64,000 bases of DNA from Chiloscyllium plagiosum (lineage: Eukaryota): positions 5,384,154 through 5,448,153 of the forward strand of contig NC_057759.1 in assembly GCF_004010195.1 (NCBI RefSeq). Reading direction: 5' to 3'. Position numbers and translations under genes: made by a program. The notes beneath the pieces are model-generated. The model was not told the origin of the DNA. It searched no databases and saw only the letters and a program-made list of their open reading frames with translations. Positions 14,989-55,135 of the stretch are shown in pieces (positions within the stretch are counted from its first letter, which is position 1; each line of letters opens with the position of its first letter).

Positions 14989-15269
14989 GTGTCATTTGCT
15001 GTCCCTCAATGCAAGGATGTCATCTACTCAGGATAATACATTTTTGCTGTTGCTCTATATGCAACTGAACTGGCAGATTCCCTGTATAGGTAGTGGGATC
15101 TGGTGCAGATTATGCTTCCTTTTCTTTCTCTATTGCTGCTCTGACTCATCATTAAGGTGCAGCTGGGCAGACAAGTTGCCACTTTTTAAAAATTGACAGT
15201 AAGGTCCATGATCCTGAACTTTAAGTAACTTCATGGAAAGCTTCAGTGTCTTGGAAGACTGGGACCACT

Positions 15270-16205
15270 TTTGTTTGTCATTTATATATAAATGATTTAG
15301 ATGAGGAAATGGAAAGCATGATTAGCAACTTTGCAGAGAACATCAGGATTGGTAGTATAGTGGATAATGAAGAAGGTTATTGAAGATTACAAAGAAATCT
15401 TGATCAATTGGGTCCATGGTCTGAAAGTGGCAGATGGGTCTAATTTGGATAAATGTGAAGTAATGCATTTTGGTAAAACAAACAAAGACAGGAATTATTC
15501 AATTTAAAGTAGAACCATCAGTGGTGTTGTGGAACAGAGAAACCTAAGGGTTCAGGTACATAATTCTCTGAAGTTTGCATCACAGATAGATAGGGTGGTT
15601 AAGAAGGCATTTTGCACGCTTGCATTTATTGCTCAGACTTGTGATTATAGGAGTTGGGATGTCCTATTGAGGTTGAACAGGACAGTGGTGAGGCCTGTTC
15701 TGGAGTACTGTGTCCAGTTCTCCTTGTTATAGGAAGGATATTATTAAGTTGTAGGGGGCTTGGAAGAGATTTACCTGGATGCTGTTGGGAATGGAAGATT
15801 TGAGTTAGGAGAGGCTAGATAGATTTAGATTAGATTAGACTTACAGTGTGGAAACAGGCCCTTCGGCCCAACAAGTCCACACCAACCCGCCGAAGCGCAA
15901 CCCACCCATTCCCCTACATTTACCCCTTTACCTAAAGGTGAGGCGAAAGATTTTATAAAGGCGTAACTGGCAACTTTTCTTATGAAGTGGTTTGTGTATA
16001 GAATGAACTTTCAGAATAAATGGTGGATACGGACACAATCACAATGTTTAAAAGCTGTTTAGATAAGATCATTAACAAAAAAAAAACTTGGAAGGTCATG
16101 GACAAACCACAGGCAGTTGGAACCAGTTTAGTTTTGGATTATGTTCAGGGTGGACTGTTTGGACTGAAGGGTCTTTTTCAGTGCTGTATGAATGTGACTA
16201 TGTGA
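15270..16205 (+). mobile_element. CR1-clade LINE 3' fragment (mirror ~31780-32470)
   Basis: VVKKAFCTLAFI...VVRPVLEYCVQF. Confidence 0.8.
15826..15933 (-). mobile_element. 5'-truncated SINE, left arm only
   Basis: Only the tail and 3' part are present; it replaces CR1 sequence retained at ~32040-32175. Confidence 0.8.
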
Positions 16206-16795
16206 CTCCAAGCCCAGTAATCATTGGGCTAAATGGTTTGTTCCCGCTCTATTTTCTTTTTACTAAATGACTGCCTCAGACTGATTCCTGAGATGGCAGG
16301 ACTGACAGATGACGAGAGACTGAATTAGTTAGGATTATATTTACTAGAGTTTAGAAGAATTGGGGTGGGAGGAAACCTATAAATTCTAACAGGGTAAAAA
16401 TAGGAAGGAATTTCACACTAACAGAGCTAAGGGGGAGGAGTTAAAAACAAATGGGTCATAGTCGAAAGGAGACAGGGTGTAGGGCTGTCATGGGCAGAAC
16501 TGTCTCCACCCAGAAAGTGGGGAGCCTGTGGAATTGTCTACCACAGAAAGCGGTCATGGTGAGATCATCAAATAATGTTCAAAGAAGATTGGGATAGAGT
16601 ACCTTGGGGCTAAAGGAGAAAGTGGGAAATGGGAGTCTGAGTTGGGCAATACCATTGCAGCAGGCTGGAGGGACCAGGTGGCCTACTCCTGCTCCTATTT
16701 GCTCTGTCCTTCAGCTCCTTTGTTGAAGTGCAATTACAGAAATGGTCAAAAAATGCAACGAGCCTTGGATTAAGACATTGTCTGTTCCCTTGCAG

Positions 16796-16893
16796 AGGGA
16801 GGTTGACAGTCACGTGACTTACGCGTCGTTAATGCACCTTGAAAGGACAAGAGACCAAGATGTGCGTGCTGGAAGGCAGGGAGGTAATGGAGC
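16796..16893 (+). CDS. Terminal ITIM exon, left copy, truncated by assembly gap
   Basis: Acceptor tctgttcccttgcag|AGG; reads REVDSHVTYASLMHLERTRDQDVRAGRQGGNG, then Ns. Inverted homologue of 31081-31176. Confidence 0.75.
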
Positions 16894-17393
16894 NNNNNNN
16901 NNNNNNNNNNNNNNNNNNNNNNNNNNNNNNNNNNNNNNNNNNNNNNNNNNNNNNNNNNNNNNNNNNNNNNNNNNNNNNNNNNNNNNNNNNNNNNNNNNNN
17001 NNNNNNNNNNNNNNNNNNNNNNNNNNNNNNNNNNNNNNNNNNNNNNNNNNNNNNNNNNNNNNNNNNNNNNNNNNNNNNNNNNNNNNNNNNNNNNNNNNNN
17101 NNNNNNNNNNNNNNNNNNNNNNNNNNNNNNNNNNNNNNNNNNNNNNNNNNNNNNNNNNNNNNNNNNNNNNNNNNNNNNNNNNNNNNNNNNNNNNNNNNNN
17201 NNNNNNNNNNNNNNNNNNNNNNNNNNNNNNNNNNNNNNNNNNNNNNNNNNNNNNNNNNNNNNNNNNNNNNNNNNNNNNNNNNNNNNNNNNNNNNNNNNNN
17301 NNNNNNNNNNNNNNNNNNNNNNNNNNNNNNNNNNNNNNNNNNNNNNNNNNNNNNNNNNNNNNNNNNNNNNNNNNNNNNNNNNNNNNNNNNNNN
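16894..17393. other. Assembly gap of exactly 500 N (probably an unsized scaffolding join)
   Basis: Run of 500 Ns; a round number is typical of placeholder gaps. Confidence 0.9.
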
Positions 17394-17559
17394 TGGCTTA
17401 TAAAGACTGTATACCGTTGTTCTGCCCTTTTTCGGGTTCGAGGAGTCCCCAGTATATATCTACCCACTGCCCTTCTGCCATTGGTAATGTGTCCGGTGAT
17501 AGAATCATTTGGGATCCAGAGTGAATCATTGTCATAGAACAGTTGACAGAATAGCCATT

Positions 17560-17860
17560 TGGAAAGAGAACCGAGACCCCACATCTCACCAGCAAGTGAC
17601 GGCCCATCAGATTCACAGGGCATGCAGGTGATGAAATATACCGGTGACGAAAGGTCTGTCCGGCCACTGATGTGATCAGTGGCGATGTCAAAGGCAGATT
17701 TTCTGGTTTACCCGAGAACCCTACTAACTAGATGCTGGAGGATGACATATTTGACCGAGGTATATCACAAGTGACGGTAGAAAATCTTGCATCTGTGTCA
17801 ACCAAAAAAAACAGATTCTTGTCCATTACCCTCATTTACATATAGGGGTCTGCCAACCCC
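17560..17860 (-). pseudogene. pro: ERV aspartic protease, inactivated
   Basis: LVDTDARFSTV (DTG changed to DTD) and CPVNLMGRHLL, with frameshifts. Confidence 0.7.
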
Positions 17861-17889
17861 ACATGCCCCTGGATTCTCGGGCCCCGTCA

Positions 17890-19349
17890 ATATTTGTACC
17901 CCTGCCCTTCCGGCATAGTCTGGGGGTACGGTCCTTGCACCGGGGCTGCAGCTGCATTTAGGGCTTGGTAAGGCTGAGCAGCCTGTTGAAAAGAAAGCTG
18001 ACTTGGGGATACTGTCCTCGGATCAATCCCTAGCCTCCCTTCTAGCCTCATCGAGCTGTAACTTCAGCAACTGCACTTGAGCTGACTCGTTGCTCTGTTT
18101 ATCTTCATCCTGTTTTGTCCTGTTACGCTTCATGCGGTGCGTCAAATGTTTTTCCCACTGTTCTGTAGAACAACCTGGGATGTTAGGATTACTCTCCATT
18201 GCCTCTTTTACTTCCTTAGGCATCCCTGCCATAGGGGCGTTCCTAAATAATGTGGTCTGTAGCTGACCCGACCCTGGATGGCTCCCTGCAGTATCTGTTC
18301 ACGTGCCCTTACACCTAGCCAAAAAGGCAGGAATATCCTCACCCTCCTTCATTGTGAAGGTGAGGGAGTGCATTGCTCCCGGTGGAATCGGAAGTCTATC
18401 CCTCATTGCCCTTCCCACACAGGTGGCATGCTGCACAAACTGTTCCGAATCAGGTAGTAAGGTGGTCCCCGCAGACGCTTCAATCTGCTGTATTTCCCAC
18501 ATATTCAATTCCTTGCCCAACAATGCTCTCCAATCACCCATAGCTAACTTGTACCCTAGTGTATATTGGCAAAATTTAGTCATCCAAGGCCCACCTCCCT
18601 CCATGGGTGGGGGCATTTTATCCAGGATGCAGTTCATGTCAGTAAATGTGAAGGGCTGATAAACATCCCCCAAATAAGAGCCTCTGTAAATTAATGGCAT
18701 CTGGTGGATGATACTTTATGGTAAATTAATGGCATCTGGTGGATGATACTTTATGGGTTGTCGTAATGTGTCTCTGTGATGCAGGATGTAACTTGGTTCA
18801 GGTAGGGGCTTCATTGGAGGGCCATGTTCAGTATGCATTGTGAGTGAGCCTTTCAAAGTGACGGGGTAGGTGTGTGGGTCATCGTCTGTCAGGGATTCTT
18901 CGTCCTCAATATCTATACTACTTTTAGACTCCTCCCCATCCAATTTCTCTGTTCAGCTTCTAGTGTTAGTTTTTCTACTTTTCTGATACTTTCTTCTACA
19001 CCTTCCGCCAGTCTCTGTTTTACTACGTTGTACTCTCTTGTTCCTACTTCTGCACATCTGACACCCCTTCTTGAACATACATAAGTGGCATTTGTATTAC
19101 AGGATATGGGGGCGGTGATTGTACCACAGGCAATTTAGGATATAATGGCGCGGATGGTCCTGCATTTTCTGTCTCCTTTGTCAGTTCTATTGTAGAGGTA
19201 CCACCTACTCTCTTTTGTAATGTTTCTACTGTCATACAGGCTAACGTCATGTTGTGCAGATAAATCCTCCTCTCCTCTTTCTCCTCGCCTTCTTTAGTCC
19301 ACTTTCTTCTAACTAATATTGACCCTTTCTTTCCCTTCATGTGCTCTTC
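17890..19349 (-). pseudogene. gag: ERV gag, disrupted
   Basis: Fragments ...GPSAPLYPKLPVVQSPPPYP..., YQPFTFTDM...EGGGPWM...LAMGDWRALL and a coiled-coil-like C-terminal part, broken by stops and a 35-bp duplication (18686-18755). Confidence 0.7.
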
Positions 19350-19620
19350 NNNNNNNNNNNNNNNNNNNNNNNNNNNNNNNNNNNNNNNNNNNNNNNNNNN
19401 NNNNNNNNNNNNNNNNNNNNNNNNNNNNNNNNNNNNNNNNNNNNNNNNNNNNNNNNNNNNNNNNNNNNNNNNNNNNNNNNNNNNNNNNNNNNNNNNNNNN
19501 NNNNNNNNNNNNNNNNNNNNNNNNNNNNNNNNNNNNNNNNNNNNNNNNNNNNNNNNNNNNNNNNNNNNNNNNNNNNNNNNNNNNNNNNNNNNNNNNNNNN
19601 NNNNNNNNNNNNNNNNNNNN
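19350..19620. other. Assembly gap of 271 N inside the ERV
   Basis: Run of Ns next to the tandemly repeated leader region. Confidence 0.95.
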
Positions 19621-19818
19621 AACCCCACGGGACTTTAAACCCGTACGTATCAAACTTTGTTGCTTTTATGGGGACTCTAACCCCAAGGGACTTTAAACCC
19701 GTACGTACCTTGTTGCTTTTATGGGGACTGTAACCTCAAGGGACTTTAAACCTGTACATATTAAACTTTGTTGCTTTTATGGGGACTCTAACCCCAAGGG
19801 ACTTTAAACCTGTACGTA
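19621..19818. repeat. ~58-60 bp tandem repeat in the ERV leader (at least 3.5 units)
   Basis: Repeated ggggactctaaccccaagggactttaaacccgtacgta...ttgttgcttttat. Confidence 0.85.
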
Positions 19819-20022
19819 CTATATCAATACTTTATCCACTTACTATTACGAGGACGCTTGCAGTATAATGACAACAATCAATTTAGTATTTCCAATGGCA
19901 GAACTTCGATATAAACAGGCATCTGCTCACCTTTTTTTATGCGGCGCCGCTTGTTGTTGTCATCAGACGTCAGTTGTCCATTGTTTCTATTTTTCTCTCT
20001 TTTCCGTCACTTCTCCGTCTTC

Positions 20023-20040
20023 AGCACGTCAGGGTCACCA
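20023..20040 (-). promoter_or_regulatory. Primer binding site, tRNA-Trp type
   Basis: TGGTGACCCTGACGTGCT, 3 nt after the LTR end; 16/18 match to the tRNA-Trp PBS TGGTGACCCCGACGTGAT. Confidence 0.8.
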
Positions 20041-20043
20041 AAT

Positions 20044-20685
20044 TGTTGGACTTTGGCTCAATCTACCAGCTTACTTTCTTCTATGTGTGAGCCAAGTCCT
20101 GCGTGTTCTTTCAATGAAGCAATAGGAGAAGATATTCGGTCTCACATTTTTAGTTTATTTTAGGAATAAGTGGATAAAGCATACAGAGCTCTGGGTCTAG
20201 ACCTTTCTGTCCTTGCCAAACTATATAGTGTGTCAGTTCAGAAAATCCCACACCCTTCTGTCCCTGAACCAGTCTTGTTATACAATAAAAAATGTCATGC
20301 AATCACTGATGTGGGATTATCTTCTGATTGGCTGTTGATCTGACTCCATTCTCCACCTCCTTACGTTCCCGGATGTCCGACCCCACGTGACCCTGTTTTG
20401 CCCGCGAAACGGAGTACCACGTGACCCTGTTTTGCCCGCGAAACGGAGGACCACGTGACCTCCTTGCACGCCTCCAGCGCGTGAAACAGGGCATCACGTG
20501 ACCTCCCTGCACGCCTCTGGCGTGTGAAACAGAGCATCACGTGACCCTGCTTTGCAACGGAGCGGAGCACCACGTCACCTTGTTCTGCGCGCGTGCATAA
20601 CGGAGCACCCCCAAAGGCTTCCGAATGCTGAGTAGATTTACACTCGCAGCCTGCCATATATTTATAAGTAAGTCATATGTTTACA
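20044..20685 (-). repeat. ERV 5' LTR (~640 bp)
   Basis: Minus strand starts TGTAAAC and ends CCAACA. TATA-like tatata at ~20222-20227, AATAAA at ~20154-20159, and a CpG-rich ~36-bp CACGTG-containing tandem array at ~20380-20600. Confidence 0.75.
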
Positions 20686-25519: not shown

Positions 25520-28062
25520 TTAAAAATTACACAACACCAGGTTATAGTCCAATTGGAAGCAATGCTCCTTCATCAGGTGATTGTGGAGGGCTCGATCGAT
25601 ACACAGAATTTATCGCAAAAATTTGCAGTGTGATGTAACTGAAATTATACATTGAAAAATTGATTGTCTGTTAAGCTTTTCATCTGTTAGAATACAGTGA
25701 TAGTTTCACTTCTTTCATGTGAAAATCACAAAACCCTGTTTTTTAAAGTTGAATTCTCGGGTTAGCTGTTAACAATGGTGATAGCTAGACAATATGTTGA
25801 AGGTATTAGCTCCCTGTGTTCTCTGTCTATGACCTGATGTTTAGATTGATTCTAATCTAAAAAGTGAGATCAGAGTTCTACATGAATGTATGCCGTTTTT
25901 GAGCAAAGTGCAATGTAACTCTGCAAGTATAAATTCACCACACAAAATATATGTGTGCATGTGGGTCTTTGTCTGTCTGTGTGTGTGTGTGTCTGTCTGG
26001 GGTGGGGGTTGTGAGTGTGAGAAAGTGTGTGTGTGTTCCTCAGGATTCATTGTAACAGTGCTGAGACAATCTCTACATGTATCATTGAAATACGATCAAA
26101 TGAAATTTGATATTGTTATGATTCATTGGGACAGTGCAATGAAATAAAAACCCTATTCATCCGTTGTCGTAGCCTTTGCTCGGTTTCCCCAATGTACCAT
26201 GCCTCTGGGCATCCCTGCCTGCAATGTATAAGATAGACAATGTTGGCTGAGTCACATGAGTACTTGCCATGTACAAGGTGGGAGGTGTTCCCATGCATAA
26301 TAGTGGTATCTATGTCCACAATCTGACACGTCTTGCAGTGTCCACCGTGACAGGGTTGAATGGAGTTGTCCTGAGAGCCGGGCAGTTTGCTACGAACAAT
26401 GATCTGTTTTAGGTTTGGTGGTTGTTTAAAGGCAAGTCGTGGAGGTGTGGGGAAGGTCTTGGTGAGGTGCTCATCCTCATTGATAATGTGTTGCAGGTCA
26501 CGAAGAACATGGCGTAATTTTTCAGCCCCTGGGAAGTACTGAACAACGAAAGGTACCCTGTCAATTGCAGCCCGTGTCTGTCTCCTGAGGAGGTCATTAC
26601 GGTTCCTTGCTGTGGCATGTCGGAACTGGCGGTCGATGAGTTGAACATGGTACCCCGTTCTTGTGAGGGCATCCTTGAGTACTTCCAGGTGTCCGTCACG
26701 TTCCTCCTCATCTGAGCAGATCCGGTGTATGCATAGGGCTTGTCTATAGGGAATGGCTGTTTTAATATGTTTTGGGTGGAAGCTGGAGAAGTGTAGCATT
26801 GTGAGGTTGTATGTGGGTTTGCGGTAGAGTGTGGTGCTGAGGTATCCGTCTTTGATGGAGACGCACGTGTCCAAGAATGAGACAGACAGTCGAGAGTAGT
26901 CCATGGTGAGTTTGATGGTGGGATGAAACTTGTTGATGTCACTGTGTAGTTGTATTAGTGACTCCTCGCCATGGGTCCAGAGGAAGAAAATGTCATCAAT
27001 GCACCTGGTGTACAATGTCGGTTGGAGATCCTGCATTGAGAAGAAATCTTGTTTGAACCTGTGCATAAAAATGTTGGCATATTGGGGTGCAAATTTGGTC
27101 CCCATGGCTGTTCCATGTGTCTGGATGAAGAATTGGTTGTCAAAGGTTATGATCGAGCATAAAGCGGATGAGTTGTAGGATGGTGTTTGGAGACTGGCAG
27201 TTATTGGTGTTGAGTACTGAGGCTGTTGCTACGATGCCATGGGGATGCTGGTGTAGAGTGCGGAAAAGTCCATTGTGACTAGGAATGTTCCCAGTTCGAC
27301 TGGTCCGTGGGTGCTGAGTTTCTGTAAGAAATCCGTAGTGTCGCGACAGAAGCTGGAGATCCCCTGTACAATAGGTTTCAAGATGCCTTCCACACAGCCG
27401 GAGAGATTCTCACATAGGGTCCCATTGCCCGACACAATGGGACGTCCCGGTGTGTTGGCTTTGTGTACCTTTGGAAGGCAGTAGAAGTCGCCTACATGAG
27501 AAGTACGTAGGATGAGGGCGCACAGGGAACTCTGAAGGACTGGATCCAAAGTTCTGATCAGTGTGTTTAATTCTCGGGTGTGATCTTTGGTCGGATCAGC
27601 TGGTAGTTGCCTGTAGTGTTCTTGGTTGTTCAGTTGTCGGTACACTTCCTGTTCTATTCTGAATGACAATGGCTCCTCCTTTATCTGTTGGTTTGATGAC
27701 AATGTTGTGATTGGTTTTGAGAGCCTGGATGGCATTGCGTTGGGAACGGGTGATGTTTTGCTCTATCTTGTGGGTACGGCTGATGAATCTGTCATTTATA
27801 TATTTCCTGACAGTTTGAGCATACATGTCAAGCCCAGGGCAGCGGCCCTCCGGTGGGGTCCATGCTGACACCTTCTTTGGTCGCTCCTCTACAGATCCCT
27901 GTGATGACTGTTCTTGTTCATCAGTGGGCTTAGTGGGATCACTGCCGGCACCTTGAAAGAATTCCCGGAGTCTCATTGGTCTGATGAACTCCTCTGTGTC
28001 TGCTGCCAGAACCAACGGGTCCATTTTGGTGGTGGGGCAGAAGTTGAGACCCCTGCTCAGGA
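25520..28062 (-). mobile_element. Penelope-like retroelement (RT + GIY-YIG endonuclease), disrupted
   Basis: Consecutive frames: LSRGLNFCPT..., IKPTDKGGAIVI, FYCLPKVHK...PGRPIVSG, LVTMDFSALYTSIP, AMGTKFAPQYANIFM, RCIDDIFFLW (YIDD changed to CIDD), TTLYRKPT, then CDSANIVYLIHC...YIGETEQRLRQRM. Inserted within CR1 sequence. Confidence 0.92.
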
Positions 28063-28119
28063 AATAAGGCAGGGCAAGTGACTGAAATGTCAGTGGGGGA
28101 GAACTTAGGGCCAAGTGAC

Positions 28120-28412
28120 CGGGGATGGCTCAGTGGTTAGCGCTGCTGCCTCACAGCACCATATACCCGGTTCTGAATCCAGCCTCGGGTGACTGTGTGA
28201 AGTTTGCATGTTCTCCCTATTTCTGCATTGGTTTCCTCCAGGTGCTCCGGCTTCCTCCCACATTCAAAGATGTGTAGATTAGGTGAAGTGGCCATGCTAA
28301 ATTGCCTGTCGTGTTCAGGGATGTGTACGTTCAGTGCATTAGTCAGGGAAATGTAGAATAATAGGGCAGGGGAATGGGTCTGTTTGGATACTCTTTGGAG
28401 GGTTGGTGTAGA
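28120..28412 (+). mobile_element. Older HE1/V-SINE type SINE
   Basis: Diverged head and core. Confidence 0.75.
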
Positions 28413-31047: not shown

Positions 31048-31176
31048 CTAGCACCTCCGAATGTTCTGGTAGACAGATGATCCATTACCTCCCTGCCTTC
31101 CAGCACGCACATCTTGGTCCCTTGTCCTTTCAAGGTGCATTAACGACGCATAAGTTACGTGACTGTCAACCTCTCT
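31048..31176 (-). CDS. Terminal exon with ITIM (VTYASL) and distal tyrosine motif (SVYQNI), right copy
   Basis: Acceptor tctgttcccttgcag|AGA; reads REVDSHVTYASLMHLERTRDQDVRAGRQGGNGSSVYQNIRRC-TAG. Internal differences from the left copy are synonymous in this frame. Confidence 0.82.
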   Translation of the reverse strand, partial: REVDSHVTYASLMHLERTRDQDVRAGRQGGNGSSVYQNIRRC

Positions 31177-34100
31177 CTGCAAGGGAACAGACAATGTCTT
31201 AATCCAAGGCTCGTTGTATTTTTTTTACCATTTCTGTAATTGCACTTCAACAAAGGAGCTGAAGGACAGAGCAAATAGGAGCAGGAGTATGCCACCTGGT
31301 CCCTCCAGCCTGCTGCAATGGTATTGCCCAACTCAGACTCCCATTTCCCACTTTCTCCTTTAGTCCCAAGGTACTCTATCCCAATCTTCTTTGAACATTA
31401 TTTGATGGTCTCACCATGACCGCTTTCTGTGGTAGAGAATTCCACAGGCTCCCCACTTTCTGGGTGAAGACAGTTCTGCCCATCGCAGTCCTACACCGTT
31501 TCCTTTCGACTATGACCCATTTGTTTTTAACTCCTCCCCCTTAGCTCTGTTAGTGGGAAATTCCTTCCTACTTTTACCCTGTTAGAATTTATAGGTTTCC
31601 TCCACCCCAATTCTTCTAAACTCTAGTAAATATAATCCTAACTAATTCAGTCTCTCATCATCTGTCAGTCCTGCCATCTCAGGAATCAGTCTGAGGTAGT
31701 GAAGAAGACAGTTATTTAGTAAAAAGAAAATAGAGCGGGAACGAACCATTTAGCCCAAAGATTACAGGGCCTGGAGTCACATTCATACAGCACTGAAAAA
31801 GACCCTTCAGTCCAAACAGTCCACGCTGAACATAATCCAAAACTAAACTGGTTCCAACTGCCTGTCGTTGGTCATGACATTCCAAGTTTTTTTTTGTTAA
31901 TGATCTTATCTAAACAGCTTTTAAACATTGTGATTGTGTCCGTATCCACCATTTATTCTGAAAGTTCATTCCATACACAAACCACTTTATAAGAAAAATT
32001 GCCAGTTATGCCTTTGTAAAATCTTTCGCTTCACCTTAAAATGTCCTGTTTGTGAAAGCCTTCACCCCAGGGAAAAGAAATTTGTCATTAACCCTATCGA
32101 TACCCCACATTATTTTATAAACCTCTATAAAGTCACCTCCCAACTTCCTGTGCTCCAGTGAAAGAAGTTCCAGCTATCTAGCCTCTCCTTCTAACTCAAA
32201 TCTTCCATTCCCAACAGCATCCAGGTAAATCTCTTCCAAGCCCTCTCCAACTTAATAATATCCTCTCTAATAACAAGGAGAACTGGACACAGTACTCCAG
32301 AACAGGCCTCACCACTGTCCTGTTCAACCTCAATAGGGCATCCCAACTCCTATAATCACAAGTCTGAGCAATAAAGTCAAGCGTGCAAAATGCCTTCTTA
32401 ACCACCCTATCTGTGATGCAAACTTCAGAAAATTATGTACCCGAACCCTTAGGTTTTTCTGTTCCACAACACGCAGTCTTCCAAGACACTGAAGCTTTCC
32501 ATGAAGCTACTTAAAGTTCAGGATCATGGACCTTACTGTCAATCTTTAAAAGTGGCAACTTGTCTGTCCAACTGCATCACAATGTGGATCTGAACACCTT
32601 AATGATGAGTTAGAGCAGCAATAGAGAAAGAAAAGGAAGCCTATCCTGCACCAGATCCCACTACCTATACAGGGAATCTGCCAGTTCAATTGCATATAGA
32701 GCAACAGCAAAAATGTATTATCCTGAGTAGATGATATCCTTGCATTGAGGGACAGCTGATGACACTTTGGTGATGATTGGGCCTAGTTGCTACAAATGTC
32801 CTGATCTCAGTTGATAACAGAACACTTTGCGACATGGATTGGTCTGCAAAAAGTGTTAGTTGCATAAAGCTTGCAATAGCTGCAAAGATCAAATAGTCAT
32901 TGTCCACTCTTGTTTATATTTCTCAAGCCATGATCTCAGAGCCCTTATGGCTACTCCTTGCAGAGTGTCCACTCTTGCATTGCAGCCATCCAGTAAGATT
33001 ACACATTATGATAGGTATTCTGTTGACAGGTCTTTTGTCTGCAGTGGAACGCAAAGCATTACAGAATATGACTTAGGAAAGCCAGACTGAGTACAGATTT
33101 CCTTCAGTCAAGGTCATGATTTTTAAAAAAATATACACTTGTAGGATGCAGGTGTGACTGGCAGGGCTAACATTGATCACCCATCCCTAATTGCCAATAG
33201 GGCAGTTAAGAGTCAGCCGCATTGTTGTGTGTCTGGAGTTATATGTACGCCAGACTGGGTAAAGATGACAGATTTTCTTCCCGAAAGGACATTAGTACCC
33301 AGACGGTGCTCTCTCCTGTCAATGGTCCTCATTAGACTTTAAATCCAAGACTTTTATTGAACTCAAATTCACCCCTTCGCCATGGCAGGATTTGCACCTA
33401 GGTCACTGGAACATCACCTAGGAATCCAGATTTATAGTCTAGCATCAATACCATTCAGCCAGGACCTCCATTTGCTAGATCAGACAGCTAGTTGAGTGTT
33501 CATAACATGGTTCATTTGCTCAGATCCACTTTTAATGATTAACTAATGTATGACACAGAACCATATCTATTAAACTGATGTCAATACTTATTATTTAAAT
33601 GGTGAAAGACTGCAGAAAGCTGTGGACCTAAGGGTTTGGGAGTCCTGGTCCGAGAATCCCAAAACTGAAGCTAGCGGCCAAGTTAAGCAGGTCATGATAG
33701 CCTTTATTTCAAAGGGAATGGAATATAAAAGTCAGGAGATTTTGCTTAAACTATACAAGACACTCGATAGACCACATCTGTGATACAGTGATCAGTTTTG
33801 GGCCTCCGTATCTAAGGAGAGGTAGATTAGGCATTGGAGGCAGTCCCAAGAAGGTTCACTAAACTGATCCTGGGAATGGAGGGACTGTGTGTTTAGGAAG
33901 AGATTGCATAAGTCTAGCCTATCCTCATTTGGTGTTGAGAAGAAAGATGGGCGACCTTATTGAAGATTTTCAGATGACTTGACTTGAGGGGAGGTGCAGA
34001 GAGAGTTTGTTTCTCCATGTGTGTAAGAGTCTGGGACCAGAGGGATATCATTTCAGAATGTGGCAGTCCGAGGGAGGGGGAAAGGGGGTTTGTCGCCCAT

Positions 34101-35241
34101 TGAAGACAGAGGCGAGGAGGAATTTCTTCTTTTCAAGGGGAGAGAGTCTGTGGACTTTACTGCAGATGCTGGATGTCTTGGCTCGGTCGTAAAGTATGCA
34201 AAAGTGAGTACTGCAGATGCTGGAAACCAGAGTTTAGGTCAGAGTGGTACTGGAAAAACACAGCAGGTCAGGCAGCATCCGAGGAGCAGGAATATCAACT
34301 TTTCAGGCAAAAGCCCTTCAATTCCTGCTGAAGGGGATTTGCCCGAAATGTCGATCTTCCTGCTCCTCAGTCGTGAAGTATATTCAAGGCTGAGATTTTT
34401 AATCTGGAAGAGGAATTGAGGGTTATGGATGAAAGTGAAGTTGAGGATTATTAAATCAGCTGCATTCAGCAGAGCAGACTTTGCTGGTTGAATGGCCTAT
34501 TACCGCTCCTAAGTGTGATCATTTTATTGGACTTGGAGAGGGATAACGTGTCTAAGATATAGATGCTAAGTTGCAGGATCCCATAAGCACTGAGAAACCC
34601 AGGATGCTAGTCCACAGATCCCTGAAGGTGGCAGAACAGGCTAATAGTTAAGAAGGCCTTCAGGACACTTGCCTTTATCAGTTGGAACATAGATTATAAG
34701 AGCGGGTAGGTGATATCTGAGCTGGACAGGACTTTGGTCGGGCTACAGCTAGATCACTATAGGAAGGATGTGATTGCAGTGGAGGGGGTGCAGAGCTGAT
34801 TCACGGCAATATTGCCTGGGTGTCACATTTCAGTGATGTGGAGAGCTTGGATAAGCTCGGATTGTTCTGTTTGGAGCAGAGAAGGTTGAGGGGTGATCTG
34901 ATACAGGTGTAGTAGACTGTGACAGTCTCGTAGCTGTAAGGCACATTTCCAATGGGTAAAGGAATCCATAAGCAGGGGTCACAGATTCAAAGGTAAAAAA
35001 TGGATTTGCGGAGAAAATTGTTCGTCCAGTGGATGGTGGGCTACCTGGAACTCTCTGCCTCTGAAAGTGGGAGACGCAGAAACCCTCGTTATTCAAAGAA
35101 GTATTTAGATATACAACTGCATTGCTGTTGCCTCTGGGGATAAGGGTGAAAGCGCTGAAAAGTGAGAGTGTTGCTTTCAGATCTTTGCTGATAAGAACCC
35201 CTCCTTGTCCTGTAAAGGTCTATGAAATAACAAGAACTTAC

Positions 35242-35267
35242 TGATTCTCTTCTTGCCATGATATGAC
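35242..35267 (-). CDS. 26-nt cytoplasmic-tail micro-exon (right copy, in frame)
   Basis: Acceptor ggttgtttcttccag|GT, donor TCA|gtaagt. Phase 1 to phase 0, exactly what is needed to join the phase-1 upstream exons to the phase-0 terminal exon. Encodes HIMARRES. Confidence 0.65.
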
Positions 35268-38200
35268 CTGGAAGAAACAACCAGAAAACAATTGTAGTAC
35301 ACAGTAGGGCTAGGGATTGCATTTTCCACCTCCCTTGGCATTGTGTGTCAGTTCAGAAGATAGGTGCACGAGCAGAGGCGGCTGGGCAGTATATGTGGGT
35401 GGCAAGACAGGTGGAGGGCATGGTTACTAAAGCACACAGCATCCAAGAGCAGCAGGTGATGTTGAATTTGTACAAGGTGCTTGCTGGACATCAGCTAGAA
35501 TATGGCATGCAGTTGTGTTTGCCACATTATAGAAAATATATGAATGTATCTCAGTGAGTGAGAGAGCGCCAAAGCAGTTTTGATTTGATTTATTGTCGTC
35601 AGATGCACAGAAACAGTGAAAAGGTTTGTTTTGCATGCTCTACAGGCAGATCATCGCATACAAAGTGCACCAGGGCAGCAGAACAGACTGCAGAATACAG
35701 TGTTAAAGCTGTAAAGAAGGTGCAGAGAAGGAGATAAACATTAATATTTGAGAAGTCCGTTCAAAAGTATGGTAACAGCGGGGAAGAAGATATTCTTTTT
35801 CTGTTGGTATGTATATTCAAACACTTCTATCTTCTTCAGAGGTAATAGAGCATAACCAGGTTGGGAGGGCTGTATGAATATGTTGTCCACTTTCCCGATG
35901 CAGCAAGAAGTATGAGTGGAGTCAGTCAATGGAAAACTGGCTTGTGTGATAGATTTCCAAGAACCAGGTTCCAGGGAGGAGAAACTCCAACGATGAGGAT
36001 ACTGAAAGAAGTCAGGGACTGTACTCCCTTAGAGTGGAGAAGCAGAGAATGAGGGAGGTTTTCAAAATAGTTAGCAGGGGCAGGACAGAATTAATAGGGA
36101 GAAGCTGTTCCTGAACAAAAACGAGAATGGTGGTGGGGGTGTGGTGGTGGTGGCGGCTTGTAGATTTAAACTGATATGGAAACAAAGCAAGTTGGCAAAG
36201 AAACGTAAGGAATAAATCTTTTCACCCAGTTAGGGTGTAGAATGCACTGCCTGGAAATGTGTTGGAGGTAGATTCAATGGAGAAGGGTATTTGGACAGAA
36301 ATGGATTGCACAGGTATCTGGTAGGATTGGCATGAGGGGATACATTTCTGTCAAGCTGTGCAGAAAGAAGTTGGTTTCAGTCAGTGCCAACATACCCACA
36401 CCATCTGAATTAAACATTTGATTCGAAGTATCCTTGACAAAGCCGTTGTGTTAGGTGGAGATTTTTTTTTAGATTTAGTTACCTACACTGTGTAAACAGG
36501 CCCTTCAGCCCAACAAGTTCACAATGACCCTCCGAAGAGCAACCCACCCAGACCCATTCCCCTACACCTAACACTACGGGTAATTTAGCATGGCCAATAA
36601 CCTGCACATCTTTGGACTGTGGGAGGAAATCGCAGCACCCAGAGTAAACCCACACAGACACGGGAGAATGTGCAAACTCCACACAGACAGTTGCCCAAGG
36701 CAGGAATTGAACCTGGGTACCTGGCGCTGTGAAGCCAACCACTGCTAATCACCATGTTGCCCAATGTCGGGCTATATTATCTCATTGAAAGAATACAGCA
36801 CAGATTAAGGGAATTGTGAAGTTCAGTGAGGAATCCCATATCACATTGAACAGCAGAGCAGACAAGATGGGCTGAATGACCTATTTCAGCTTCTATGTGC
36901 AGCAAACCACCAACAGACTGGACCTACCATTTACTGCTCCCATCCCTAATTGTTCCCGAGGAAAGTTAGGCACCAACCATATCGCTGAGAGTCTGGAGTC
37001 ACATGCAGGATCAGACTAGGTAAGGAAGGAGATTTCTCTCCCTGAAGGAGACCAGTGAACCAGATGAATTTTCGTTCTGAGATACGTTATCACTGCTTCA
37101 CACTTTTTTTTAGATTAGATTACTTACAGTGTGGAAACAGGCCATTTGGCCCAAGTCCACACCGACCCACCAAAGCGCAACCCACCCAGACCCATTCCCC
37201 TACATTTACCCCTTCACCTAACACTAGGGCAATTTAACATAGCCAATTCACCTAACCTGCACATTTTTAGACTGTGGGAGGAAACCGGAGCATCTGGAGG
37301 AAACCCATGCAGACACGGGGAGAATGTGCAAACTCCACAGAGAGTCGCCTGAGGCGGTAATTGAACCCGGTTCTCTGGCGCTGAGAGGCAGCAGTGCTAA
37401 CCACTGTGCCAACGTGCCTGTTAGTAAGACAAAGTTAAAAATCTCACAGTACCAGGTTATAGTTCAACAGGTTTATTTGGAAATACATGTTTCCCAAGCA
37501 CTGCTCCTTTGTCAGGTAGCTAGAGGGGAGCTAGCTACCTGATGAAAGAACAGTGCTCCGAAAGACATTACTTTCAAATTATCCGATTGGATTATACTCT
37601 GATGTTATGAGATTTTTAACTTTGTCCACTTCAGTCCAACACTAGCATCATGTTAGTAAGATGATCGCTTACTTTGCAGGTGATGCAAAAATAGTTGGCA
37701 ATGCAAGTTGTGCGTGTGCCACGAAGATAGGGTTAAGTGAATGGGCAAGAAACCTTGAATATAACATGTAGAAATGTAAGGTGATGCAGGAAGAACAGAG
37801 GAGTTGAAGATTATTTAAATAGAGAAAGACTGCAGAAAGCTATGAGTCTGAGGGATTTTACAGTCCTCATCCATGAATCTCAAAAAAAACTAGTGTTTGA
37901 ATTCTGCAGGTGAGACCAGATCATTAGATATAGGAACAGAATTAGTCCCATTGGGTCTCCTCTGCCATTTTGCCATGGATAATATCATTCTCAATCCAAT
38001 CCTCCTGCTTTGTCCTGATAACCATTGATCCCCTTATTAATCAAAATCTGTCTTAAAGACACTTAATGACTGGGTCTCCACAGCCTTCCGTGACAGTGAG
38101 TTTCACAGATTGACCACCTTTTGGCTGAAGAAAGTAGTCCTCATCTCAGTTCTATAGGGTTGTCCCTTCACTTGAGATTGTGCCCTTGGGTCCTTGTTTC

Positions 38201-38579
38201 TGGGGGATGCCTGAGGACACTTGCTTCTCTTGATATGTTAATGATATGGATCATGCAGTGCAGGAGTCCAATTCCAAGTTTGCAATTGACATAAAACATG
38301 GGAAGAGCATTAACTGTGAAGAGAATGATGTGGAACTCTAAAAAGACATTGACAAGTTGATGGGAGTGGGTAAATTGGTGACAGGTCCAGTTCGATGTAG
38401 AGGCAAGTGTGAAGTAATGAAATTTGGTGAGTAGTACATTGAAAGACAGTATAAAACAGGGTACAACTCTGAAGGGGGGTGTATGAGCTGGGGGGGGTAT
38501 ATATGTGCACTGATCACTGAAGGCGATAGGTCAGAGGGACAGCAGTTAATAAAGCTCAGTATCCTCAACTTTATTAATT

Positions 38580-41050
38580 GAGGTGCAGTTTCTCACACCC
38601 TCATTTAGGAAAGGTTACCTGAACTCCATGCCCCTAATGCTAAGAAATGGAGTCCGAGGACCACCCACCATCATTACATCAGCGTCTGATTAGGCCCAAT
38701 TGATCAGGGTGATCAAGTACTGATCGATCAATTTGTCAGCATCAAAGACCCTCCCAAAGGTATAAGAAACATTCAGGTATTATAATCACCGCAACACAAC
38801 TCTCAGGAGTGGTAGCTCAAGATGAACAACCATGAAAAGATGATGATCCTTGGACCACCAGAAGGAGACCAAATTGCCACGTGGATGAAGACCAATATCT
38901 AGCACAGTGGTATTTGTACATTCAAATTTAAGTTTAAGAGTTCAGATAGTTAATTAGAATTAGAGGGTTAATTATTAGTTTATAATGTATTGATATTATA
39001 ATATTAGCTGTGTTGAAATAGATTTAAAAAGTCATTTCTTATTAATGTTTTGAGTCGACCTGCAGTTCTTTGCTGAATATAAGAGTCAAAATACACTGTG
39101 TGGCAGACACAAGAAATTGGTGACTTTGGTGGGACTCAATAAGAAGTGACTTTGTTGTTGTAAAATTGAACCCCATGGAACCTAATACTCCCTCAAATTT
39201 TGCCTGTGTCCAAATTAAGAAGACAAGTCCCACCTGATGGTCGGGAATCCAAGTAAACTGAAGGAATAGAAAGGTCTACATTGGACTGTTCTTTAAAGGA
39301 TAAATCCAGTAGGTATGTGTGTGTGCGCGCGCGCGAGAGAGAGAGATCCATCGTGGGACAGGTAAGGTAAAACAGCGGAAGTTGGTACAGACCCAATGTG
39401 ATTAAGATTGGAACACAGCGAAAGCTTAGTTTAATTTTGAATGGCAAAGAAATGTACCTGAGAAAACGACTGTCTGATTTGGAAAAAAAGTTAAGACTTG
39501 TATATCAGTAAGGAAAGGTGGCCGATATGGGCATGATTTTGCAGTAATGATGAAATGGGACCAGGATCCCTAAGACAACAATATTGAGACAATTGGAGGA
39601 AAATTCTCGGAAAGTGGTCTTTCAAGCTTGAAAACCCTACAACAATGATATGCTGTATCAGACAATTGCTAGGAAGTGAGCAGGAATTGAAAAAAGTTTA
39701 GAAGTGTGGCAGTGGCAAAGCACAGCCAGTCAGGCAGCATCCGAGGAGCAGGAGAATCAGAAATGAAGAGTTTATGTTCAAAAGGTCAACTCTCCTGCTC
39801 AGATGCTGCTGAGTGGCTGTGTTTTTCCAGCGTAACACTTTTAGACTCTGATCTCCAGCATCTGCAAACCTCACTCTCGCCTTGGAATCGAAAAGGTTTC
39901 GTAAAGAATCAGATAATGCAAGGAAAGAAATAGAGTTGCAAAGGAAAGTGGCGACTCAGGACTAAAGAAATCATGGGGCAATTCCAAACCCAATGTGAGA
40001 AGGCATACAGGACACCCAGTGAGTTGTTTCAGCTGAAGAAGCCACTGAGAATGAAGTCAGTCAGTTAAAAAGTAAATGTGCAGATCTACAAGCAGCAATA
40101 GATGTTAAAGGCGAAGAACAGGAGGTAGACTGAGATGAGTTCAGGCAAGATGTGCAGCAGTATGCCATGTGAACAGAGGATTATGGTTCTCCGCTAACCT
40201 TCCCAGAAGACCCAACCTGTTTAGCCTCTACTGCAGTGAACTCGATTACCATGGAAAGACCGGTCAGGGATGCCGATGCCCCAGCGTTAACATACACGAA
40301 CACACTTAGTCACACAATTGGTGGAATTTGCTAAAACGATTTCAGAATTTGAGCCATCTGCAGATCCATATGTATTGCTTGTAGTCAGACAACAAAAGGA
40401 TTTGCATTGATTAGATGAGAGAGAGGAGGGAAAAAATTATCAAAATGTCTTTGAGCCAGTCAGCAGAGTCTGCAATCCCAGTCTCTCTGGATGTAGTGGA
40501 AGGAACCCAAGCCACCACGGAAGTGGCAATTCTCACATCAATTGGGTACAATAAAGGAGACCCTGTAGATGGGCTAAACTAGTGCAGTCAAATGAAGAGA
40601 GAACAGCTGACAGCCTACTAATCGGTTATGTGTGTACTTCTCGTGAGTCTATAAACAGGGGTCTGTTATTGGAAGCTGATTCAATGAAGTGGGCTGGGCT
40701 GTAATTTCACGTGCCACTGAAGACAGCCGGAAGACATGTGTGAACTTCAATCCTGCAGAGCCAACCCACAATGAGATGTGTGTTCTGAGGAGACTGTCTC
40801 TGATGTGGGAGAAAGAAGTGCATAAACCAGACAAGAATAAAACGGGGAAAGAGAGGAAAATGCTTCCTTTCAGAGTCTCAATCCAGTATTGAGGAATGAA
40901 GGAAGAGGAGGTAATTATTATCAAAGGATCCCAGCAACGGGGAGAGATAGTACGTGTGGCAGCCAGCGTGGTGCTACTACTGTGGGCAAACAGGACACTA
41001 CGCTCGAGAATATTTAGCTGATGTGTGGGAGGCACAATGTTATAATAACT
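38580..41050 (+). mobile_element. Old LTR-retroelement remnant with a tRNA-Arg-like PBS (mirror ~3220-4890, which lacks the PBS segment)
   Basis: TGGTGACTTTGGTGGGAC at 39118-39135, 16/18 to the complement of the vertebrate tRNA-Arg(UCU) 3' end, followed by purine-rich decayed gag-like sequence. Boundaries approximate. Confidence 0.5.
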
Positions 41051-44000
41051 TTAGTTTATTTGTCCTTACAAAAGGTAACACCGGTTGATCAACCTTACTA
41101 GCACTGAAAACTCCAACTAACAGTAATACACTTAACTAATTCCTAACAAACCTAACTTGAACTCTGTCCCTTACTGTCACTACTTTATTTTCTACTTACA
41201 GGATGTGGTTGCGACTGGCTGTGCCCTGCATTAATCACCCTAGTTTCCAGTTTCCCCCTTGAGAAGATAACAGTGAGCTGCCTTCTTGAACCATTGCAGT
41301 CAATGTGCTTCAGGTAGGCCCCCATGACCTTTGGGAGGTAATTTCCAGATGTCGACCCAACAATGCTGAAGGAACAGCTGATATATTTCCAAGTCAGGAT
41401 GGTGAGTGAATCGGAGGGGAAATTGTAGGGGGTGGCATTCCCACGTATTTCCTGCCCTTGCCCTTCCAGATGGAAGCGATCATGGGTTTGAAAGTTTTTT
41501 TATGAGGAACTTTGGTGAATTTTGCAAATGGTACACACTGCTGAGATTGAGCATCGATGGTGGAGGGAGTGGATGTTTGTGGATGTGGTGCCAATCAAGC
41601 GGGAGCTATTTTGTCCTGGATGGTGTTGAGCTTCTCTAGTGTTCTTGGAGCTGCACCAGGCAAGTGGGGAATATTCCATCACATTTCTGACTTGTGCCTT
41701 GTCGATGGTAGACAGGATTTTGGGGGTGTGGCTGAGGGTGGAGGGGGTATTTCTGGAGATGCGTTACTCGCTGCAGTATTCCTAGCCTCTGGCCTGCTCT
41801 TGTAGCTACAGTATTGATATGGCAAGTCCAGTTCAGTTTCTGGTCAATGGGAATTCTGGTTCTGGGGAGACTCAAATAGTAATATCAAATTGTCAAGGAG
41901 CTGATGGTTAGATTCTCTCTCAATTGTTACCCCCAGAATGTTGATGGTGAGGGGATTCAGCGATGGTAACACTATTGAACATCAAGAGGCGATACTTGGA
42001 ATCTTTCTTATTAGAGATATGTGTGGTGCAAATGTTACTTGTCACTTGTCAGCACAAGCCTAGGTATTATCAAGACCTTGCTACATTTTGACGCAGACTG
42101 CTTCAGTATCTGAGGCATGGGGAATGGAACTGAAGAGTAGAGTCATAGAAATGAACAGCATGGAAACAGACCCTTCAGTCCAACTCAACTATGCCGACCA
42201 GATGCCCTAAATGAATCTGATCCTATTTGGCAGCATTTGGATCATATCCCTGCAAACCTTTCCTGTTCATGTACCGATCCAGGTGCTTTCTAAATGTTGT
42301 AAATTAACCTGTCCCTACAACTCCCCTCTGACAGATCATTCCGTACACACACCATCCTCTGTGTGAAAAAGACATGCCACTTAGGTCCCTTTTAAATCTG
42401 TCTTGTCTCACCTAAAATCTATTCCCTCCAGTTTTGGACTTGCCTACCATGGGAGGAAATACCTTAGTCATTCACCCTAATTCACCCTATCCATGCCCCT
42501 CAAGTTTTTATAAACTTCCACATTTTACTCACCTTTAATCTTAATCGATCCAGGGAAAATAGCCCCAGCCTATTCAGCATTTCCCTATTCCTCAAACCCT
42601 CCAACCCTGGCAACATCCTTGTAAATCTTTTCCAAAACCTTTCAAACTTAAACAGTATCTCTCCTAATAGCAAGGACACCAGAATTTCATCCAGTATTCC
42701 AAAAAAAGGACATAACTAATATGCTGTACAGTGAGAACATTACATCCCAATTCTTATACTCAGTGCACTAACCAATGAAGGCCAGTGTACCAAATGCCTT
42801 CTGGTTCGCTATCCTGTCCACCTGCAACTCGCTTTCAAGGAACTATGAACCTGCACCCCTCGGTCTCATTGTTGCGCAATATTCCCCTGAATGCTACCAC
42901 TAAGTGTATAAATCCTACCCTGATTTGCCTTACCAAAATTCAACACCTCACTTTATCTAATATTTATCCAATGTGAAATACATTGAACACTTCTGGGTCC
43001 CCATATCTGAGAATATATAGTCTGGGCAGCGAGACAGTGCAGAGAAAATTCACACAGCTGATCCCGGATATGGAGGGACTGTCTGACGAGGAAGAGGTTG
43101 GGTAGGAGTAGGTCGGGTCTGTCCTGGTTGGAGTTCAGAAGAATGAGAGGTGACCTTATTGAAGATTCTTAGAGGGACCTGAAAAGGGAGGAGAGAGAGA
43201 TTGTTTCCCCTTGTGTAGGAGAGTTTAGGACCAGAGGGGCATTGTCTCAGAATAAAGGAGGTTACCCATTGGAGATGGAAATGGGAAGGAATTTATTTTC
43301 TCTGAGGGACTAATCGGTGGAATTCTTTACCGCACAGGGGTGTTGAGCCTGGCTCACTGATTATATTCAAGCCGAGATAAAGAGATTTTTAATGAGGAAG
43401 GGGAATTCATGGTGGATGTTTTGTGGCAGTAAGAGCGTTTGAGTGGGATGGAGGGGAGGGGGGGGGTGTAATGACACAAATGTAGAGTTGAGGGTGATTA
43501 GATCAGAAGTGTTCCCATTTAACATCAGAGCAAATTCTCTAGGCTGAATACCACAGTCCCACACCAACATCTTTTGGTCTTCGCATTCTGAAAACAGTTA
43601 AGTTACATGAACAGTGCAGATATAAAACCATTGCACAGAGTTGAGCCAAATTTCACAGTAAAAGGTCTCTCAAAGGCAAATAATCTCCAGTTAGAAACTC
43701 GTCTCGGGATCAGAGCAGAGGAGAAAGTTGGTGATCTACCAATTACAGAACACTCCTCCTGAAATTAACCCTCATCCCCAGCAGCTAAATCTGGAGTAAA
43801 AGTGGGACTATTCCAACAGCAATAAAAGATGATGTGAAGATGTCGGTCAACCTGAGAGACCTATTATGACAAATTGTCATTGACTGGTATACATTCAGTA
43901 TGGCAACCGGAGAGCCAATACATCCCACATCTTCCATTGCCAATGTCAATTTGCTCCACCTAGAGTTGGAACTCTTGTAAAGTGTCCTGATCAGTTTCAA

Positions 44001-44121
44001 GACCAGAAACGAAATACACCATTTCCATTTAGCCAGATCAGCATTCGTGAACCATGGTTTCCATCCCGTGTTAGCTTCCCCTCGCACCTCCCACTGCACT
44101 GCGGCCACTTGGTTCACTCAC

Positions 44122-44388
44122 TCTGGACAGTGATTTCCACCTGGAGGGACATGAACGTTGAAAGGTTCTGGAAAACCATGCAGCGGTACCATCCTGAATC
44201 TATTAAGGTCACTCGGTGGATGTGATAGATGTTGTGAGACACAGAATCAGAGCTCGCGAGGATTTTGTTTCTGTAGAAGGAAGTTTGTCCTCTCCCACAC
44301 ACGTGATCCTGGGTGCAGTGACAATTCAATGTGATGGATTCACCGACTCTCTGCAGTCTGGGATCCACCTGCAATATCACCGGACTTT
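44122..44388 (-). CDS. Ig domain exon 3 of the FcR-like receptor gene
   Basis: Acceptor ctctgtcaatttcag|AA, donor A|gtgagt, 267 nt, phase 1-1. Encodes SPVILQVDPRLQRVGESITLNCHC...SFYRNK...VTLIDSGWYRCMV...SLQVEITVQ. Confidence 0.88.
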
Positions 44389-50129: not shown

Positions 50130-50411
50130 TTCGCACATCCATATGTTTGTAAGCTGAAGTGTATACAGGGCCATCAGGATGATTAACAAACTGCATTTGG
50201 CATTGATACCGTCCTGTATCCTCAGACGTAACCCGTTCCTTTTCAAAAGAAACAGTTTTATTTCTTGTCCGGATCTCAGCCACAACAGAGCCTTCCCAAT
50301 AAAGCGTGTAACTGAATTCATCTTGCACACGGAATGCAAATTGACAATGCAACTTCAGTGTCTGTTCATACCACAGAGGTTCTGGCTCAGATTCAATAAT
50401 TGAATCAGGAG
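50130..50411 (-). CDS. Ig domain exon 2 of the FcR-like receptor gene
   Basis: Acceptor catttctttcttgacag|CT, donor A|gtacgt, 282 nt, phase 1-1. Encodes PDSIIESEPEPLWYEQTLKLHCQF...YTLYWEG...VTSEDTGRYQCQM...SAYKHMDVR. Confidence 0.88.
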
Positions 50412-54182: not shown

Positions 54183-54458
54183 AGGATACTCTCACAAGAA
54201 TGCTGTTACTGTAGGGTGTTTTATATGCCGATGTGGAAGATTGGCATCTGTACTCCCCATCATCCTCCTTTCTAGCAGCCTCAATGATGTAAGTCTTCTC
54301 CCTGAACTCTTTGGTAGTTTTGTTTACGATCCAGTTATAGGTTGTCGAATGAAGCTCACGACCGGCATTGCAGCTAAGAGTGATCCGGTCACCCGTTAAC
54401 AATCTGTCCCACATTGGCTCCATCGTTAGTACAGGTACTCCAGTCTTCACTGAGGAAC
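54183..54458 (-). CDS. Ig (C2-type, FcR/FCRL D1-like) domain exon 1 of an Fc receptor-like immune receptor gene
   Basis: Acceptor tttttctatggattag|GT, donor T|gtgagt, 276 nt, phase 1-1. Encodes (G)SSVKTGVPVLTMEPMWDRLLTGDRITLSCNAG...YNWIVNK...IEAARKEDDGEYRCQ...SNSILVRVS with both canonical Cys, the Trp and the DxGxYxC motif; the N-terminus resembles FcR/FCRL 'VLTLEPPW...GE.VTLxC'. Confidence 0.9.
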
Positions 54459-54599
54459 CTAATCCATAGAAAAACATACACAGCCACAAGGGGAAGCACT
54501 GAAATTTGCTTGCTGCAGTAGCTTACCTCTCAGACAACTAAAGCTGGCTTAGGCTGATGAGTGGTAAGTAACATTCCCATCTCACAAATTCCAGGCAAC

Positions 54600-55135
54600 G
54601 ACTATCTCCAATAAGAGAGAATTGAACCATCACCCCTTGACGTTCAATGGTGTTACCATCTCTGAATCGCCTCAATATCAATATCTAGAGGTTACCAGTG
54701 AGAGAGAATTTCACCAGCCCCTTCACTTTCAAAGATATTACCATGACTGAATCCATTAGACTATCAGTATTGGGAGTGGGGGAGGGGGAGGTTTACAATT
54801 GAGAGAGAATTGAACTATCTCCCTTTGGTGTTCTATTGTGTTATTATCACTAAAGTCCCCACTATCAACATGCTGGGGTTACTATTGAGGGATAACTTAA
54901 CCATCATCCCCTTCATTTTCCCCATTATCAACATTCTGGAGGCTATGTTGGGTTGCTATCATTAAAAGCAAATCTAATCATCGCCCCCTTAATGGTGTTA
55001 GCATCATTGAATCACCCATTATCAACATCATGGGGATGACTGTCAAGAGAGAATCTAACCAACGGCCCTTGACTTTCAATATTAAGATCATCACTGAATC
55101 CCCCCACGATTAATATCCTAGGGTTGCCATTGACC
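54600..55135 (+). repeat. Tandemly iterated ~80-bp LINE-derived segment
   Basis: About six degenerate units of gagagagaattgaaccatcaccccttgacgttcaatggtgttaccatcactgaatccccactatcaacatcctggggttaccatt. Confidence 0.65.

Follow-up and report, generated by a model that had tools for sequence, protein, structure and literature searches.

Loss of the Transmembrane and ITIM1 Exons from One Copy of an Fc Receptor-Like Gene Pair in the Bamboo Shark Chiloscyllium plagiosum

Introduction

Loss of the transmembrane (TM) exon, giving a soluble form, is a known outcome in the receptor families to which Fc receptors and their relatives belong. In Xenopus laevis, an FcR-like XFL cDNA is reported that lacks a TM segment and carries a typical tail with two tyrosine motifs, and its authors left undecided whether it represents a splice form or a separate gene (PMC2413239). 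Human FcgammaRIIA2 is described as an mRNA without the TM exon, whose product is potentially secreted and of uncertain physiology (PMC6433993). Soluble forms encoded by separate genes are also reported: horse CEACAM41 and CEACAM54 are secreted paralogs that arose after duplication via TM-exon skipping (PMC5856374), LILRA3 is a secreted paralog of paired receptors (PMC10679719), and the catfish soluble IgM receptor has three Ig domains and neither a TM segment nor a GPI anchor (PMC4016189). Shark Fc receptor-like (FCRL-like) genes have been little studied. A 2014 survey listed no FCRL in sharks (PMC4016189); in a 2024 single-cell study, B cells of the bamboo shark are reported to transcribe genes named fcgr1a-like, fcrl3, and fcrl5, which may or may not belong to the present family (PMC11372145). 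Passages found in open-access PMC and bioRxiv texts gave no description of a TM-less shark FCRL-like gene.

Here, we analyzed a 64,000-nucleotide stretch of the Chiloscyllium plagiosum genome (the window; NC_057759.1, positions 5,384,154 to 5,448,153), which contains an FCRL-like gene copy without a TM exon (the right copy) and part of a sister copy that retains it (the left copy); all positions below are those of the window. The right copy resembles the Xenopus XFL cDNA in combining the absence of a TM segment with a tail of two tyrosine motifs; XFL is known as a cDNA, whereas the right copy is a genomic loss with no cDNA known. FcgammaRIIA2 differs in being a splice variant of an intact gene, with two Ig domains and a known IgG ligand. 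By analogy, the right copy, if expressed, might work like FcgammaRIIA2 or the TM-less XFL, but with the change fixed in the DNA. Like CEACAM41 and CEACAM54, LILRA3, and the catfish receptor, it is a duplicate of a membrane receptor whose TM exon was lost or skipped; those genes have reported expression evidence, whereas the right copy is known from genomic sequence. In addition, the CEACAM41 skip is reported to strip the signaling motif from the product, whereas the right copy keeps two motifs in frame. The event is, against this background, unsurprising; if the copy is expressed, it would offer a snapshot of the one-step birth of a soluble receptor from an inhibitory membrane receptor in the oldest antibody-bearing lineage, and a naturally occurring soluble form could serve as a convenient reagent in the search for the ligand.

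Results and Discussion

Two Diverged Arms of an Inverted Duplication

The window consists of repeat-rich shark DNA with two N runs, at 16894-17393 (500) and 19350-19620 (271). Self-alignment of the window revealed an inverted duplication, in which left 1653-16891 (+) pairs with right 43448-31081 (-):

1653 to 16891, plus strand, left arm of the inverted duplication (sister copy, with no Ig exons of its own in the 64-kb window), from self-alignment
31081 to 43448, minus strand, right arm of the inverted duplication, from self-alignment
16894 to 17393, no strand, 500-N gap ending the left arm, from the N-run scan

The arms align in nine blocks, with 443 mismatches in 11,186 aligned bases (3.96%) and 58 gap openings. 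Six blocks of 112-836 bp are specific to one arm, and two of these are flanked by 14-15-bp target-site duplications. A tandem 706-bp duplication, 97.3% identical between its units, was observed in the self-alignment in the left arm only (13579-14989, +). The order and orientation of the arms, and with them the side-by-side inverted layout, are not demonstrated by continuous sequence. It could be asked whether the arms are diverged haplotypes of one gene that scaffolding has set side by side, with the deletion described below as a polymorphic allele. The left arm does stop 2 bases short of the 500-N gap, and the left and right copies share derived tail residues against all relatives; but the divergence, the 58 gap openings, and the six arm-specific blocks fall short of allele-level identity, and several copies of such genes lie on one chromosome in related species. 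Divergence of this size far exceeds ordinary allelic difference, and we regard the haplotype explanation as improbable.

An FCRL-Like Inhibitory Receptor of Carpet Sharks

The right copy could be assembled from five exons on the minus strand:

54183 to 54458, minus strand, Ig1 exon, 276 nt, phase 1-1, with AG/GT ends and an open frame (Pfam Ig_3, E=3.9e-9)
50130 to 50411, minus strand, Ig2 exon, 282 nt, phase 1-1 (Pfam Ig_2, E=1.9e-7; best homolog 78%)
44122 to 44388, minus strand, Ig3 exon, 267 nt, phase 1-1 (Pfam Ig_2, E=3.2e-5, which misses the curated cut-off)
35242 to 35267, minus strand, cytoplasmic micro-exon, 26 nt, phase 1 to 0, equal in length to that of relatives
31048 to 31176, minus strand, last coding exon with the tyrosine motifs VTYASL and SVYQNI, a C-terminal Cys, and the stop, from the splice model and homology

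The left copy contributes four exons on the plus strand:

5848 to 5991, plus strand, TM exon, 144 nt, phase 1-1, uncharged helix (19-residue hydropathy 2.66)
7158 to 7223, plus strand, ITIM1 exon, 66 nt, phase 1-1, motif IVYSVV, from the splice model
11572 to 11596, plus strand, micro-exon, 25 nt, 1 bp under that of the right copy, from the arm comparison
16796 to 16893, plus strand, last exon, truncated by the assembly gap, from the N-run scan and splice model

Homology and exon layout identify the gene as a carpet-shark FCRL-like inhibitory receptor. Identity to bamboo and epaulette shark models was 76-90% per Ig domain (76-82 of 91 residues for Ig1) and 36-37 of 41 residues for the last exon. 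With Ig2 as the query, 11 proteins were retrieved, each from a carpet shark and 67-78% identical, of which 10 were named as Fc-receptor-like or Fc-receptor relatives and one was uncharacterized. When a profile of 11 shark relatives was compared with PDB, human FCRL5 ranked first (E=1.4e-80), followed by CEA (2.5e-26) and FCRL4 (2.4e-22). The FcR/FCRL layout of one phase-1 exon for each Ig domain and the TM segment, a rule applied to this family in PMC2413239, was found here (276, 282, 267, and 144 nt, all phase 1-1). The features of the inhibitory type, an uncharged TM segment and tyrosine motifs on separate exons, are present in the left copy and in relatives; the TM exon of the right copy is deleted. 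A 13-row tree built on the three Ig domains placed the right copy as sister to Chiloscyllium and Hemiscyllium genes with moderate support (81/86); its branch of 0.13 is not clearly long, the distance from the shared node to the bamboo and epaulette shark genes being about 0.10-0.13.

The carpet-shark models labeled "Fc receptor-like" in RefSeq (Chiloscyllium punctatum XP_072422780.1 and XP_072422784-790, C. plagiosum XP_043539744.1, Hemiscyllium ocellatum XP_060712762.1, and Stegostoma tigrinum XP_059498336.1), whose names derive from automatic annotation, are like the right copy in exon order and tail motifs; unlike it, they keep the TM exon, mostly keep ITIM1, and in many cases include Ig4. 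Whole-exon dropout is common among the relatives' models, and their clusters include truncated ones. Among 47 models (38 + 9, counting isoforms and not independent genes), none joined Ig3 to the micro-exon, and one had a TM-less join, the zebra shark XP_059497940.1 (P0191), in which an Ig exon is joined directly to ITIM1. This predicted model resembles the right copy in its in-frame Ig-to-cytoplasmic join and in missing the whole 48-residue TM exon, but differs in having Ig1-Ig4, ITIM1, and a read-through end after the micro-exon.

A 3,142-bp Deletion with Both Exons

The comparison of the arms placed the loss as follows:

5239 to 8380, plus strand, segment absent from the right copy, 3,142 bp, from self-alignment and exon searches
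38197 to 38201, minus strand, deletion junction with imperfect 5-bp microhomology, from alignment; nearest N run 18.6 kb away

At right 38201-38197, the alignment skips from left 5233-5238 to left 8376-8381, which agrees with the initial annotation that the junction joins the equivalents of left 5238 and 8381. Two placements of the junction are possible, each with 3,142 bp removed and one mismatch; the loss of about 3,140 bp with both phase 1-1 exons, as first described, is thus refined to 3,142 bp (left 5239-8380), and the deleted segment does carry the TM and ITIM1 exons. Neither exon was found relocated within the window by blastn (word 7) or tblastn. An old repeat is unbroken over left 8075-8626, and on the right the junction cuts it and only its downstream part remains. 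Because relatives have both exons and the old repeat is severed at the junction, the difference reflects a loss on the right and not a gain on the left, and an insertion into the left copy was ruled out.

The deletion is real in the assembly. A mis-join at the junction is conceivable in a repeat-rich, gapped region; however, the breakpoints have no collapsible repeat pair, the junction is enclosed by gap-free sequence from 19621 to 64000, and both of its flanks carry variants specific to the right arm. We consider an assembly error very unlikely, the least probable of the explanations. Between the breakpoint flanks (200 bp per side), no longer homology was detected, the local score being 19 against a mean of 18.4 and a maximum of 30 in 200 shuffles; collapse or recombination via repeats at the breakpoints was ruled out, as flank homology did not exceed that of the shuffles.

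The Predicted Product

Joining Ig1, Ig2, Ig3, the micro-exon, and the last exon gave 325 open codons with no TM segment, and the in-frame join of Ig3 to the micro-exon proposed in the initial annotation was reproduced, with the donor at 44122 connecting through 35267-35242 to 31176-31048. All nine splice ends are canonical, and no disabling change (stop, frameshift, or broken site) was found in the 975 coding bases. The 19-residue hydropathy of the product peaks at 1.03, compared with 2.56 or more for the TM segments of close relatives. A search for an alternative TM exon between 44121 and 35268, a check already suggested by the first reading of this DNA, yielded a single weak candidate (hydropathy 1.63) without a donor, which was rejected as a substitute; when applied to the left copy, the same scan for hydrophobic phase-1 exons put the true TM exon at the top of eight candidates. 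Read-through of Ig3 into its intron reaches a stop after 2 codons, and a soluble form is thus possible already without the deletion.

When a TM-less spliced protein derived from RNA assemblies was sought with the last exon as the query, seven matches were obtained among eight candidates, all of them TM-bearing RefSeq models. For a protein model of the right copy itself, weak searches over 26 and 8 candidates gave nothing closer than 78% (Ig2) and 90% (last exon), respectively, and the copy seems to be without a model in the protein collection. The terminal residue of the predicted product is Cys (31051-31053, -), and Cys occupies this place in none of 33 tails of relatives. The N-G-S sequon of the right tail also occurs in membrane relatives.

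A Kept Frame and the Question of Constraint

Every Ig, TM, and ITIM1 exon has phase 1-1, and survival of the frame was therefore automatic. A 3,142-bp deletion was slid along left 1-16795, with an ancestral 26-nt micro-exon assumed and 620 exon-cutting placements set aside: all 2,882 of the clean placements that remove the TM exon stayed in frame, compared with 4,023 of 7,115 among all clean placements that remove an exon. The kept frame was therefore ruled out as evidence of selection, as every clean TM-removing placement retains it.

Neutral evolution since the duplication would be expected to leave about 3.0 disabling changes against the zero seen (P about 0.05), a rough estimate built on intron indel rates, which probably overstate the coding rate. 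This indicates that the exons of the right copy were constrained during much of the period after duplication, but it does not speak for constraint after the deletion, which the constraint may predate. Two sequences are insufficient to fix the date of the deletion.

These observations bear on whether the copy is a young pseudogene, killed by the deletion and possibly also by loss of Ig4 or the leader, with a silent or useless product and decay pending. Loss of the anchor abolishes signaling, the leader and Ig4 exons are absent from the window, a protein model of the right copy was not found, the sister copy is frameshifted (see below), and truncated models occur in the clusters of relatives. 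Set against these are the 975 coding bases free of disabling change with their canonical splice ends, and the consideration that a deletion remote from the promoter probably need not halt transcription. A pseudogene is, on balance, an unlikely reading that nonetheless deserves serious weight.

The opposite reading is a dedicated secreted decoy or soluble Fc-binding protein, which supposes an old deletion that has reached fixation, an ectodomain maintained by selection, and a tail put to another use, for instance in dimers linked through its new C-terminal Cys. The intact frame and the terminal Cys fit this reading, and soluble paralogs have arisen by duplication elsewhere, as reported for the horse CEACAMs (PMC5856374) and the catfish IgM receptor (PMC4016189). 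But the frame is retained without selection, the Cys requires one substitution and is undatable with its left counterpart inside the gap, the N-G-S sequon is not peculiar to the soluble copy, and read-through past Ig3 supplies a soluble form without any deletion. A selected decoy thus appears quite unlikely.

The Left Copy

The 25-nt micro-exon of the left copy puts its last exon out of frame, with a stop 8 codons in and loss of both distal tyrosine motifs, whereas the micro-exon and last exon are in the frame of the right copy in 26 of 38 relatives' models. The 1-bp shortfall may be a consensus error. Rescue of the left frame by an acceptor 2 bases later was rejected, the alternative site having a poor GAG end that the right copy shares. 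The last exons of the two copies differ at four positions in 96 nt, all silent (P about 0.002 under neutrality), in keeping with a frame that both copies preserved until not long ago. With the sequence as assembled, the left copy has the TM and ITIM1 exons but not the distal tyrosine motifs, the reverse of the situation in the right copy.

A bolder form of the selected reading can be built on the pair: a selected secreted FCRL-like protein would have arisen by TM-exon deletion, with its tail reused extracellularly (glycosylation sequon, Cys dimers), while the sister kept TM and ITIM1 and lost the distal motifs, so that the ancestral parts were split within the duplicate pair. If true, this would make the right copy a candidate for soluble regulation of shark IgM, IgW, or IgNAR; we consider this split very unlikely.

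Leader and Fourth Ig Exon

Neither of the two leader exons typical of relatives was detected in the 9.5 kb that the window covers upstream of Ig1; the best six-frame leader matches fall in repeats (scores 20-29), and the N-terminal extensions of relatives had no match in the window. Secretion of the right product is an assumption, because the leader exons are absent from the window. In the relatives, a 10-residue difference between isoforms (P0166 vs. P0007) implies a 30-nt second leader exon; in mammalian FCRL1-6, the signal peptide is reported to lie on two exons, the second of 21 bp, a rule that some but not all Xenopus genes are said to obey (PMC2413239). A cytosolic product starting at the first Met in Ig1, for the case of a missing leader, had nothing in its favor and was set aside. 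At 62177-62284 (-), a 108-bp segment has a good-looking acceptor and donor and one open frame; it is unlike the leaders and N-terminal extensions of relatives and may represent a 5' UTR exon or belong to a neighboring gene.

Relatives carry a fourth Ig exon before the TM exon, yet 8 of 38 models go to TM without Ig4. In the window, tblastn for Ig4 gave noise only, besides a weak cross-match to Ig1. A C-rich run, located 673 bp below the Ig3 donor, is where the homology between the arms ends (right 43448, -; left 1653, +), and right 43449-44121 and left 272-1652 have no other match within the window; this end may mark a second deletion that removed Ig4.

In the intron upstream of Ig1, 54457-54630 (-) differs at only 6 of 58 codons from a part of a C. 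punctatum model that derives from an intron. In Ig2 and Ig3, about 20% of residues are different; evolution of the Ig domains may be faster than that of neutral DNA, or their history may be another one.

A Proposed Recent Deletion in a Still-Intact Paralog

We favor a recent deletion in a still-intact paralog, which would yield an incidental soluble ectodomain if the leader is intact, and assign this reading a probability of about 0.5. The locus belongs to an expanded cluster of shark FCRL-like inhibitory receptors built from a leader, three or four Ig exons, TM, ITIM1, the micro-exon, and the last exon. The assembly shows that duplication came first and that one copy afterwards lost 3,142 bp with its TM and ITIM1 exons. 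Repair of the break probably proceeded by end joining that used a few bases of microhomology. The absence of damage in the other exons makes the deletion probably recent relative to the duplication. Provided that promoter and leader lie intact outside the window, transcription of the copy would continue; with the stop codon within the last exon, nonsense-mediated decay of its message is not expected. The product would then enter the secretory pathway and be released as three Ig domains with a 51-residue tail. Both tyrosine motifs would be extracellular, making recruitment of SHP/SHIP phosphatases impossible, and the product could act at most passively, by competing for the ligand of membrane paralogs. 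The right copy would then be a by-product of birth-and-death turnover rather than an established adaptation.

The initial annotation had offered a soluble three-Ig decoy or a young pseudogene. Its anatomy and reading frame stand; retention of the frame, being automatic from the exon phases, carries no information on function. A soluble form would require a signal peptide, and the leader exons of relatives are absent from the window. The three Ig exons are borne out, while the "three-Ig" wording omits the Ig4 of relatives, which is also absent from the window. The word "decoy" describes a presumed role.

Other Elements in the Window

Within 17394-20550, minus-strand open reading frames located between the gaps (18023-18715 and 19044-19349) encode proline-rich motifs, with short tandem arrays nearby; we take these motifs to resemble retroviral Gag late domains. 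Pfam returned no significant family, and the interval is possibly an endogenous retroviral fragment. A broken retrotransposon open reading frame at 26116-28129 (-), presumably Penelope-like by its appearance, has a weak RVT_1 match (E=0.0017). At the far end of the window, 62739-63825 contains degenerate 47-49-bp tandem repeats and a 150-bp near-tandem duplication.
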